64,000 nt of DNA from a virus. The stretch lies in IMG/VR virus record IMGVR_UViG_3300047323_000545, one strand, 5' to 3'. The position numbers were made by a program, and so were the translations under genes. The notes under the pieces are model-generated. The model saw nothing but the letters and a program-made list of their open reading frames with translations. It searched no databases and was not told the origin of the DNA. This document shows, piece by piece, positions 21,000-22,883 of this stretch. The stretch's first letter is position 1; the number at the start of each line of letters is the position of its first letter.

Positions 21000-22448
21000 G
21001 TGGTCGGGCCCTTGTCCCCAATGCCAATAGAGAGGGCACCTCCCGCCGTGCCACGCCAGTTTACGGGCCACGCACCCGTGCCGCACGCCAGCCAGGGCGA
21101 AAAACTCGCCAAAATTAGGGGAACCGCCGCCTCCGTCGGCGCGTCTCCACTTGATCTTCACCCTCAGCACTGGCTCCGCCGGTTCCCCGCACTCTCCCCG
21201 CGCATGACGGCCCTGATGGACCAGGGTGACGTCGGACTGCGCTACGGAACGACGGACTCCACCTCGTCCAAGAGGGCCAAGTCCCAGCACCGGCACGCCG
21301 TCATGTCGGCCGCCGCCGCCGGTGCCGTCCGCAGCGGCTGGACCAGCGACCAGTTCGCCGAGGCCATGATCGACTGGCCTTCGCGTCCCGGCGGCTTCGT
21401 GCGCGAGATGAGCCAGCCGTCGGCCGAGCGGTACCTGGACAAGATCTGGGAGCGGGCCCGCCACCACGTCAGCTTCACCAGCGTCGTCGGCTCCCGCGAG
21501 GACGCCGTGATCGAACTGGTCGCGCTGCGGGACACCATCGCCTCCGCCAACTGCTGGCGGGGCACGTCCGGTTCAACCGATCTCCGCGTTCTGATGGCCC
21601 ACTGGCACGCCGCGAAGAAGGCCGGTGGCCGGATGTACACCCTGGCCCACCGTGAGGCCGCAGAGGGCGCCGGGTGCACCGCCAACACCGCGTACCGGGC
21701 CTCCAAGCGCCTGGTCTCCGGGGGCTGGCTGAAGCTGGTCGAGGTGGGTACCGCTGACAAGGGATCGACCTGGTACCTGAAGGACGGTTCTCAGCAACGA
21801 CACACTCCCCGGGGGGCGCAGCCTGGGGGGGCACAGTCGAATGTATCGATGGTGAGAAACGGTGAGCTGGACGGTGCCGTCATCGAGCGCCTGATGAGCC
21901 TGGACGCCTTCGCCCACCGGGGCCTTGGAGCCTCTTCCCTGAAGATCCTGGCCGCCCTTCACCTGCGGGATCCCCAGTCCGTCGCGGAGCTGACCCAGAC
22001 CGCCATGGCCAGCTCCGCGACCGTCTACCGCAAGCTCAAGGTGCTGACCGAGCACGGTCTGGTCGAGCGCCAGGACGGCCTGTGGGCGCTCACTGAGACG
22101 GCCGCTGAGGCCCTCGCAGGGGCCTGGGAGGGCTGGGACACCGTGGCGGCCGAGGTCGGCACGTACGGGACCGCCTGGCGCCGTCAGCAGGCCCACAAGG
22201 ACCAGCGTGCGGTGTGGCACGGCATGGTCGTCCCCCGTATGCGCGAGCGCCGGATGCCCGACGTGGTTCCCGTACGGGGTGACGAGGTCGACCGGCGGTG
22301 CAGGTGGGGCAGCGAGGTCATCGACCGGGTGACCGGCGAGGTCATCGAGGACTTCGTCGTGGCGTCAGATGGCCGGTACCTGCTGCTCGTTGAGGACCTG
22401 GACTACGACGAGCTGGTCCGCCGCAACGCCCTCGCCTGCGCCGCCTGA
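21000..22448 (+). CDS. Putative plasmid-type replication initiator with two winged-HTH domains (start uncertain)
   Basis: HTH-like LAHREAAEGAGCTANTAYRASKRLVSGGWL and SVAELTQTAMASSATVYRKLKVLTEHGLV; against-strand gene carrying an internal repeat; function is inference. Confidence 0.5.
   Translation: MVGPLSPMPIERAPPAVPRQFTGHAPVPHASQGEKLAKIRGTAASVGASPLDLHPQHWLRRFPALSPRMTALMDQGDVGLRYGTTDSTSSKRAKSQHRHAVMSAAAAGAVRSGWTSDQFAEAMIDWPSRPGGFVREMSQPSAERYLDKIWERARHHVSFTSVVGSREDAVIELVALRDTIASANCWRGTSGSTDLRVLMAHWHAAKKAGGRMYTLAHREAAEGAGCTANTAYRASKRLVSGGWLKLVEVGTADKGSTWYLKDGSQQRHTPRGAQPGGAQSNVSMVRNGELDGAVIERLMSLDAFAHRGLGASSLKILAALHLRDPQSVAELTQTAMASSATVYRKLKVLTEHGLVERQDGLWALTETAAEALAGAWEGWDTVAAEVGTYGTAWRRQQAHKDQRAVWHGMVVPRMRERRMPDVVPVRGDEVDRRCRWGSEVIDRVTGEVIEDFVVASDGRYLLLVEDLDYDELVRRNALACAA
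21786..21860 (+). repeat. Composite site A: 21-bp imperfect inverted arms around a 33-bp GC-rich spacer; inverted copy of site B
   Basis: 21788-21833 is the exact reverse complement of 22818-22863 (46 bp); similarity extends to ~75 bp. Confidence 0.9.
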
Positions 22449-22505
22449 CTGCCCAGCAAACCTTCATGTAGCCGCATATTCGCTGATCAGATGGCATGCG
22501 TGGTC

Positions 22506-22535
22506 TTGCCAGCCTGTTTCCGGTCTGCTTAGTGT
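22506..22535 (+). promoter_or_regulatory. HrdB-type promoter TTGCCA-N18-TAGTGT for a leaderless gene
   Basis: ATG 22542 follows the -10 box after 6 nt. Confidence 0.55.
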
Positions 22536-22541
22536 GCCCCC

Positions 22542-22883
22542 ATGCAGAGACCGATCGCCGCCACTCGGTGCCTGTCCTATGACGACGCCACCGCAGTCCT
22601 TCCAGACATACGCCAGAACCTCAAGTACCGGGGTCTCACCCGTGATCAGTACGGCCTGTGCGCTGAAGTCGGCCGGTACGGACGAGGCTGGGCTGTCTAT
22701 GTGGGATTCCAGCGCTCCGCTGACGTCCACGAGGCCACCCAAGCCATCACCGCCGACTACCCAGATCCCAAAGACAGGTCTCTGATCTGGGGTTTCTCAG
22801 CTTTGACACATTCGATATGCCCCCCCAGGCTGCGCCCCCCGGGGAGTGTGTCGTTGCTGAGAAACTGGGTACCTGCCCCCTGA
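22542..22883 (+). CDS. Hypothetical protein, probably leaderless
   Basis: Promoter geometry; terminator hairpin downstream; 3' end runs through site B. Confidence 0.45.
   Translation: MQRPIAATRCLSYDDATAVLPDIRQNLKYRGLTRDQYGLCAEVGRYGRGWAVYVGFQRSADVHEATQAITADYPDPKDRSLIWGFSALTHSICPPRLRPPGSVSLLRNWVPAP
22792..22865 (-). repeat. Composite site B: arms GTTTCTCAGCTTTGACACATT / AGTGTGTCGTTGCTGAGAAAC (17/21 complementary), 32-bp spacer
   Basis: Read directly; inverted relative to site A about 1 kb away. Confidence 0.9.

Follow-up and report, generated by a model that had tools for sequence, protein, structure and literature searches.

The 64,000-nucleotide viral DNA record IMGVR_UViG_3300047323_000545 (i.e., the whole stretch that we analyzed, hereafter called the window) belongs to a myovirus-like Streptomyces phage-plasmid of ~150 kb that has its own replication genes. 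It carries two inverted copies of a palindromic element. One copy (site A; positions 21788 to 21858) lies within the gene for a tandem winged-helix, initiator-like protein (21204 to 22448, plus strand), and the other (site B; 22794 to 22863) lies downstream, after a small conserved open reading frame (ORF). We conclude that the pair represents a real, conserved, dual-coding cis element, which is most likely a replication origin embedded in an initiator gene, accompanied by a duplicate in inverted orientation, rather than an inversion switch. More specifically, we assign a probability of about 0.5 to the reading that both sites are the docking site of the tandem winged-helix protein and the replication origin of the plasmid (or the core initiator-binding site of that origin). 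The binding of the palindrome arms by the protein and the origin function are what we infer from the comparative evidence presented below.

An inverted-repeat search showed that the left part of site A (21788 to 21833), which we interpret below as a converted tract, is the exact reverse complement of a partner tract in site B (22818 to 22863). The two tracts, whose exact reverse complementarity an earlier note on this DNA had stated, match at 46 of 46 nucleotides (nt; 100%) and lie 984 nt apart; the runner-up within the 20- to 24-kb region was a 30-nt inverted repeat with 70% complementarity. Site A as a whole is a 71-nt imperfect palindrome composed of an outer arm (TTCTCAGCAACGACACA), a G-tract spacer, and an inner arm (TGTATCGATGGTGAGAA). 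Site B is a 70-nt inverted copy of site A, and it is 1 nt shorter than site A in nine of nine plasmids. Each site consists of two inverted arms of 17 to 21 nt around a spacer that holds G6 and G7 runs, so that the description of the sites as inverted arms flanking a G/C-run spacer was accurate. The arm starts are 54 nt (site A) or 53 nt (site B) apart (i.e., about five helical turns).

We searched the 64-kb window for the arm motif TTCTCAGCNNNGACACA with up to two mismatches, using 100 shuffles as a control. Only four matches were found (21788 and 22794 on the plus strand; 21842 and 22847 on the minus strand), compared with 0.38 expected, and none of the 100 shuffles reached four. A direct iteron array of four or more units was absent; each site has just two inverted arms, with no additional arms elsewhere in the plasmid. 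The nearest record to the window is plasmid pRLB1-9.1 of Streptomyces sp. RLB1-9 (154 kb; 86% identity across the locus), in which six arm matches were detected (four in the control), four of the six belonging to sites A and B. The arm matches in four host genomes were at the control level. A dispersed repeat resembling a miniature inverted-repeat transposable element or a repetitive extragenic palindrome was rejected on the basis of these counts in pRLB1-9.1 and the host genomes.

Site A is located in coding DNA, inside an ORF spanning 21000 to 22448, and is translated as GSQQRHTPRGAQPGGAQSNVSMVRNG. The protein comprises 414 amino acids (aa) from the ATG at 21204, and the frame is open from a GTG at 21000 (482 aa). 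We examined an AlphaFold (AF2) model that was built on 23 homologs (mean predicted local distance difference test score, 71). In this model, a disordered N terminus (residues 1 to 49) and a helical domain (67 to 182) precede winged helix 1 (190 to 260; nt 21567 to 21779, plus strand), and winged helix 2 (292 to 364; nt 21873 to 22091, plus strand) is followed by a long helix and a small beta domain. The segment between both winged helices (residues 263 to 288) is disordered and coincides exactly with site A. The translation and the model therefore bear out the earlier claim that site A encodes the linker between two helix-turn-helix (HTH) domains.

Nine loci (i.e., the window, pRLB1-9.1, two NCBI genomes, the cg35 plasmid, three IMG/VR contigs, and one short contig), whose proteins are 50 to 83% identical, retain both sites, with position and orientation preserved. 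Site B hardly varies, in contrast to the small ORF that precedes it, which is only ~65% identical. We also scanned a codon alignment of the whole initiator-like gene for third-codon-position conservation in 15-codon windows. Site A gave the top value (0.839, compared with a gene mean of 0.716; rank 1 of 444), and the linker site again ranked first in an independent subfamily with 32 to 38% identity (0.984 versus 0.785). Since site A tops third-position conservation though it codes for a disordered linker, the constraint is on the nucleotides; the linker is thus conserved at the DNA rather than the protein level, a distinction that the earlier note had proposed to check. On the evidence of these alignments, the palindromic element is under nucleotide-level selection, and site A is a case of natural dual coding, in which a DNA site dictates the sequence of a protein linker.

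The protein family has 55 database members, mainly on 150- to 157-kb Streptomyces contigs, and tblastn identified distant homologs (30 to 34% identity), one each, on 23 further large plasmids of Streptomyces and Kitasatospora (190 kb to 1 Mb; 24 records including pRLB1-9.1). We searched 45 family loci for a loose pattern, namely, TCTC[AG]-N44-72-[CT]GAGA with a run of at least six G or C residues. The pattern was present inside the gene in 34 of the 45 loci, every time at the linker, and its only occurrences outside genes, in 287 kb, were the nine copies of site B. Plasmid pSTRVI02 has linker arms GGGGAGTCTCAC and GTGAGACTCCCC and a spacer visibly akin to that of the window. The Streptomyces liliifuscus, Streptomyces longwoodensis, and pFRL4 plasmids carry a 71-nt linker palindrome whose 24-nt arms flank GGGGGAGAGGGGGG and pair at up to 23 of 24 nt; this pFRL4-type palindrome is near-perfect and differs from the window's arms, yet it occupies the same place in the linker. 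A large distant subfamily has the linker element TCTCG..CCACTCAG..CCCCCCC..GAGTGG..TGAGA. A C-run on the same strand takes the place of the G-run in this entire subfamily and in the loci L009, L010, and L045.

The distribution of the two copies suggests how the pair arose. The element is present as a single copy in the distant plasmids, while site B is found in every phage-plasmid relative, including those that have no site A. The latter form a subclade (L010, L045, and P0049 to P0052) that lacks exactly the 24 linker codons corresponding to site A and that has kept site B; the site B sequences of L010 and L045 have diverged, with the arm spacing still at 53 nt. It follows that the linker peptide is dispensable, whereas the DNA element always persists in at least one copy. 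The alignment had suggested that site A is a recent insertion, and this was rejected once the distant homologs showed the in-gene site, so that the 24-codon difference represents a loss. Because the distant homologs carry a single palindrome within the gene, we regard the in-gene site as ancestral. According to the history reconstructed from these sequences, the phage-plasmid clade then gained an inverted downstream copy, and one subclade later lost the in-gene copy. The relatives thus seem to show a cis element in the course of leaving a gene (i.e., in-gene only, then in-gene plus a conversion-matched downstream copy, and then downstream only).

Sites A and B of the same plasmid resemble each other closely. 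The left 46 nt of site A and the reverse complement of site B are identical in three plasmids (over 46, 49, and 48 nt), 96% identical in a fourth plasmid, and 87 to 91% identical in the remaining ones. The mean identity of A and B within a plasmid is 93.5%, compared with 82.7% (A-A), 85.2% (B-B), and 82.8% (A-B) between plasmids, and permutation of the A-B pairing gave a p value of 2e-5. Multi-base spacer variants (i.e., CTCCCCGG and CCTTCATG) are common to A and B of one plasmid and differ among plasmids, and the G-run of L009 has been swapped for a C-run in both sites. These sequence patterns indicate that A and B evolve in concert by episodic gene conversion. The identical tract stops where site A gains 1 nt over site B in nine of nine plasmids; conversion past this length difference would cause a frameshift in the gene.

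In the window, the conversion appears to have been very recent. Near-identical metagenome strains have A rather than C at position 22820, which is the state of most relatives and forms part of the TGA stop codon of the small ORF. This ancestral state indicates that the perfect identity of the repeats in the window is due to a very recent A-to-B conversion. The small ORF (22542 to 22883, plus strand; core motif YGxGWAVYxGFQ), for which no family match was found, has ~92 aa in relatives and 113 aa here. The window reads TGC at the usual TGA stop within site B, and 21 extra codons consequently run through the palindrome; the recent conversion thus lengthened the ORF from 92 to 113 aa. The C-terminal tail of the ORF product (FSALTHS..) is encoded by the inner arm of site B.

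The complementarity of A and B over 46 nt of the same strand could alternatively reflect an RNA-level element, such as an mRNA hairpin or a long-range antisense pairing between A and B, within one transcript or between two, that steers the translation or stability of the initiator message. Single sites do fold more favorably than their shuffled counterparts (z = -2.4 to -3.9). However, only 17 (plus strand) or 13 (minus strand) of the 66 A/B differences in the nine plasmids are G:U compatible, with no enrichment, a result that speaks for episodic conversion of the DNA rather than for selection on RNA pairing. In addition, the complementarity falls to 87 to 91% in four plasmids, the distant plasmids have no second copy with which to pair, and the same-strand change from a G-run to a C-run (in L009, L010, L045, and the distant subfamily) suits a strand-symmetric DNA role. 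A simple scan and a sigma-70 promoter scan revealed no small-RNA promoter or terminator, and Rfam yielded no match on A or B and only subthreshold ones elsewhere in the stretch. We therefore consider an RNA-level role quite improbable. Sliding-window RNA folding energy, which is insensitive to palindromes with long spacers, ranked the linker palindrome first in only 7 of 29 genes.

The earlier note had also proposed an on/off switch, in which recombination between the 46-bp repeats would flip ~1 kb and truncate the protein after its first winged helix. The arrangement invites this comparison, since inverted repeats also flank the segment in the Hin, Gin, and Fim switches and inversion would alter the gene product. 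The repeats are identical and inverted, the gene conversion shows that the two copies interact, and the postinversion reading that the note had derived (i.e., ..GGG GCA TAT CGA ATG TGT CAA AGC TGA, with a stop after six codons) is correct on paper and follows directly from the sequence. Nevertheless, none of the nine DNA loci is inverted, and all 55 database homologs have at least 390 aa and at least 73% query cover, with none looking as if it were cut after winged helix 1. The note had seen no invertase in the window, and we likewise found no recombinase among the window ORFs scanned; the two tyrosine recombinases of pRLB1-9.1 are encoded ~40 kb away, outside the part covered by the window. 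Unlike the segments of the Hin, Gin, and Fim systems, the present one has no dedicated recombinase and no evidence of both orientations, and its repeats stem from a single-copy ancestral cis site, a state that is unable to invert. The repeats have drifted to 87 to 91% identity in four plasmids, and their perfect identity in the window is explained by recent gene conversion. Read-level orientation data were taken from Logan k=31 contigs of rhizosphere metagenomes, which end inside the 46-nt repeat and from which orientation, rare inversion included, is not readable; the repeat unitig had twice the depth, as expected with two copies. The inversion switch thus has no support, and we regard it as very unlikely.

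Another reading of site A alone concerns its G7/C7 run, which together with the hairpin might act as a slippage or pausing device that yields some truncated protein (i.e., the N-terminal domain plus winged helix 1). A homopolymer of 6 to 7 nt is kept family-wide within coding DNA, and both alternative frames stop within four codons past the site (the TGA codons of both are in GGTGAGAAACGGTGAG). Runs of seven are short for efficient slippage, however, no run-length variants were seen in four metagenome contig sets, and site B, or B alone in the subclade without site A, would be left unexplained. We give this reading hardly any credence.

In the view that we favor instead, A and B represent the same cis-acting double-stranded DNA element in duplicate, and this element is particular to the tandem winged-helix family. 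The protein would bind the palindrome arms, and the element would serve as the plasmid-mode origin or as its initiator-binding core. In the phage-plasmid clade, the second inverted copy would have been added downstream beside an A+T-rich stretch, where it might act as a second origin, fork barrier, or copy-control site (compare SPP1 oriR or P1 incA), and occasional gene conversion would hold the two copies alike. The nucleotide-level selection, the symmetry, the strand-flippable spacer, and the strict family linkage with subfamily-specific arms are best explained if the element is the protein's own double-stranded DNA target. Since the protein resembles plasmid and phage initiators, an origin or an initiator-binding core is the most likely role of that target. 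Of the two proposals in the earlier note, that of paired Rep-binding origin or copy-control sites is thus the one favored by comparison (i.e., by the nucleotide constraint, the family-wide palindrome, the gene linkage, and the weak initiator matches), and the binding and the origin function are its predicted parts.

The protein itself carries sequence-specific DNA-binding domains, namely, two winged HTH (wHTH) domains identified by the AF2 model, by fold similarity (Z scores of 10 to 11), and by Pfam, which mark DNA binding generally and not initiator identity. Winged helix 1 resembles CAP-type proteins (Z, ~10), and winged helix 2 resembles MarR-type proteins (Z, ~11); the only Pfam match is a wHTH domain at residues 308 to 367. 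A search of the PDB by sequence with the initiator-like protein gave nothing below an E value of 0.03. When 10 divergent family members were compared with PHROGs, winged helix 1 gave weak but repeated matches to replication initiators (phrog_8102 in 5 of 10 members, phrog_270 in 4 of 10, and the O-like phrog_678 in 4 of 10). With respect to the tandem winged-helix iteron initiators of the Rep_3 and RepA-RepE-pi type, the protein showed these weak PHROG matches and generic winged-helix folds, with no Rep match in Pfam or NCBIfam. The label Rep-like, which the earlier note had applied to the gene, is therefore plausible.

The stretch next to site B offers a candidate unwinding element. A 60-mer at 22758 to 22817 (46.7% G+C) adjoins and extends into the inner arm of site B; it is the most A+T-rich 60-mer between 20 and 23.2 kb and has the third-lowest G+C content of the entire window. 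The lowest-G+C 60-mer of the region therefore adjoins site B, and there is nothing comparable at site A. In pSTRVI02 (NC_015952.1), the cumulative GC skew has its maximum at 100 to 105 kb, beside the homologous gene and without a strand switch; the sign and the asymmetry of this skew are ambiguous.

Several observations weigh against the origin reading. No family member matches a curated Rep family (Pfam and NCBIfam yield generic wHTH domains only), and fold searches with the whole model (Foldseek and VIA) returned only generic winged-helix proteins of the MarR- or CAP-like kinds. As an origin marker, the GC skew of pRLB1-9.1 is monotonic and tracks the gene strand, and it is ambiguous in three larger plasmids, the two linear ones having no clear extremum at the gene. 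Each site has only two inverted arms, whereas classical origins have at least four direct iterons. The conserved 960-bp noncoding leader upstream of the gene is an equally conventional location for an origin. Finally, L010 and L045 show no obvious equivalent of the A+T-rich flank of site B.

These points lead to the main rival, in which the palindromes are operators or copy-control sites (for handcuffing or incompatibility) of the same protein, serving autoregulation or titration, and the origin lies elsewhere (e.g., in the 960-bp leader). Inverted-repeat sites are typical of operators bound by dimers, conserved blocks in the leader (20239 to 21203) are found in all relatives, and iteron-like CAGAGGCAAT tandem repeats lie 5' of the gene in L011 and L023. 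However, an operator in the middle of a coding sequence that is retained across a family at 30% identity would be unusual, and the subclade without site A keeps site B ~300 bp past the gene end, which is a poor position for promoter control. We consider this explanation possible but doubtful.

A more elaborate version of the origin reading is that the A/B pair forms a working two-origin device. The initiator bound at A would fire theta replication, and B would either stall forks and so bring about a concatemeric lytic switch or allow replication-coupled flipping of the 1-kb segment. By analogy, fork arrest at B would be the oriL/oriR logic of SPP1 squeezed into 1 kb, and the flipping would be comparable to that of the yeast 2-micron circle. 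We rate this device as unlikely. If it were true, the observed gene conversion would be the footprint of the interaction between A and B, and there would be a whole uncharacterized family of large linear and circular Streptomyces plasmids with an origin in the linker codons of the initiator gene.

Among known systems, that of the Bacillus phage SPP1 is similar in arrangement. Its gp38 protein binds oriL, which lies within gene 38, and a second origin, oriR, and gp38 bound at oriR has been proposed to stall forks and thereby to trigger the switch from theta to concatemeric replication (PMC6316719). The window shares with SPP1 the location of the initiator sites (predicted ones in the window) inside the initiator's own gene, a second copy elsewhere beside an A+T-rich stretch, and a helicase and helicase loader of its own, and a similar fork-barrier role would be attractive for site B of a phage-plasmid. 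In contrast, SPP1 has direct repeats at loci ~13 kb apart, while each site here has a single pair of inverted arms, and A and B lie 1 kb apart in opposite orientations. The likeness to SPP1 is one of arrangement and not of shown sequence or family relationship between the proteins, and binding by the window protein is predicted.

The origin of phage lambda lies in the part of gene O that codes for a flexible linker between the DNA-binding and C-terminal domains of the O protein, the DNA-binding domain being a winged helix; ori-lambda consists of four 19-bp iterons and an A+T-rich block and has no second copy. The common features are an in-gene origin (a predicted one in the window) at an interdomain linker and a winged helix, and 4 of 10 family members weakly match the PHROG annotated as 'replication initiation O-like'. 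The window differs from lambda in that it has no four-iteron array and has a second copy, and the O-like match is weak (E, ~1e-4) and covers the wHTH domain only.

In Streptomyces, the binding sites of Rep proteins are iterons or long inverted repeats located beside helicase genes (PMC3583192; PMC2974207); RepA of pWTY27, for instance, binds a long inverted repeat (PMC3583192). The pSLA2-type replicon, as cited in one of these reports, consists of a DNA-binding Rep1 and a helicase Rep2 with iterons (PMC2974207). Such theta and linear replicons resemble the window in the host genus, in the position of a DNA-binding Rep (a putative one in the window) beside helicase genes, and in the long discontinuous inverted repeats that Rep recognizes or, in the window, would recognize. 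They differ in that no homology is detectable, none of those plasmids appeared in the tblastn results, and the family of the window is uncharacterized. A further parallel comes from phage-plasmid P1. In its oriR-repA-incA region, the initiator gene is bracketed by two sets of binding sites, one of which serves copy control, and these sites are direct arrays of 19-bp iterons outside the gene. The window and P1 are thus both phage-plasmids with two sets of initiator sites, which are predicted ones in the window; the P1 iterons lie outside the gene, however, and its RepA belongs to another family.

Most large plasmids and phage-plasmids of Streptomyces have no mapped origin, and our result provides a precise candidate, consisting of a ~70-bp element and its protein. 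The candidate covers a family found on ~150-kb phage-plasmids and on linear and circular plasmids of 190 kb to 1 Mb, and it could seed low-copy vectors.

The DNA of the window comes from rhizosphere metagenomes. Its gene content includes a tail sheath, a baseplate, a tape-measure/lysin protein, ParA, a primase, and a DnaB-like helicase, and it also encodes an IstB/DnaC-like loader, a 5'-3' exonuclease, and two further helicases. Plasmid pRLB1-9.1 has 185 genes, nearly all on the same strand, with parA, the HTH gene, and the small ORF downstream of the latter among the few on the other. The noncoding leader (20239 to 21203) separates the divergent gene for a DinG-type helicase from the initiator-like gene and contains blocks that are invariant among relatives down to 50% protein identity (i.e., ATGATGTTCAATG, GACACGCC, the hairpin GAGGGGCGCC...GCGCCCCTC, and CGGTCTGACCATCGCC..CACGGTGG). 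A subthreshold Rfam match to Actinomyces-1 lies in the leader on the minus strand (20410 to 20520; 31.4 bits, compared with a threshold of 39.1). On the other side of the locus, a G+C-rich hairpin (22915 to 22955; 18-nt arms, 94% complementary, 5 nt apart) is located between the site B module and the convergent gene for an SNF2-type helicase; it is probably a bidirectional terminator.

The par cassette lies 17 kb from the sites and encodes ParA (38985 to 39779) and a 326-aa partner protein. It is followed by two identical 25-nt palindromes (AAAGTGAGACCCACTGGGTCTCACT) that are 37 nt apart (40763 to 40824). The possibility that A and B are the parS of the partition system was rejected, given the distance of the cassette, its own 25-nt palindromes, and a partner protein that is unrelated to the HTH protein. 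The half-sites of the par palindrome (GTGAGAC/GTCTCAC) are similar to the outer arms (GTCTCR/YGAGAC) of the palindromes that distant family members have in their initiator genes, and this likeness may be due to chance.

The surroundings of the initiator-like gene vary among the distant plasmids. One subfamily has a ParA-like gene directly 3' of it. In the large linear plasmids L006 and L050 to L053 (i.e., pFRL4, pSCL3, and their relatives), the HTH gene follows a gene for a protein of ~840 aa, and the two overlap and form one unit; the pFRL4 copy, which is the only one scanned, has no Pfam match. Distant homologs also have tandem, 10-nt, iteron-like CAGAGGCAAT units just upstream of the gene or at its start (3121 to 3159 and 3460 to 3518 in L011, and 3086 to 3174 in L023). 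In the group of L012 to L035, a palindrome of ~26 to 30 nt (ATGCCTCCAGGATGGCCATCCTGGAGGCAT; e.g., 3197 to 3222 in L012) is found just 5' of the matched gene part in many distant homologs, and it may be an operator or a terminator. In pSTRVI02, the resistance predictor used in PLSDB labels a 45-aa ORF (104922 to 105059) 'MAL-1 beta-lactamase, carbapenem, 100% identity'; the assignment appears spurious, given how short the ORF is and that it lies in a phage-like run of genes.

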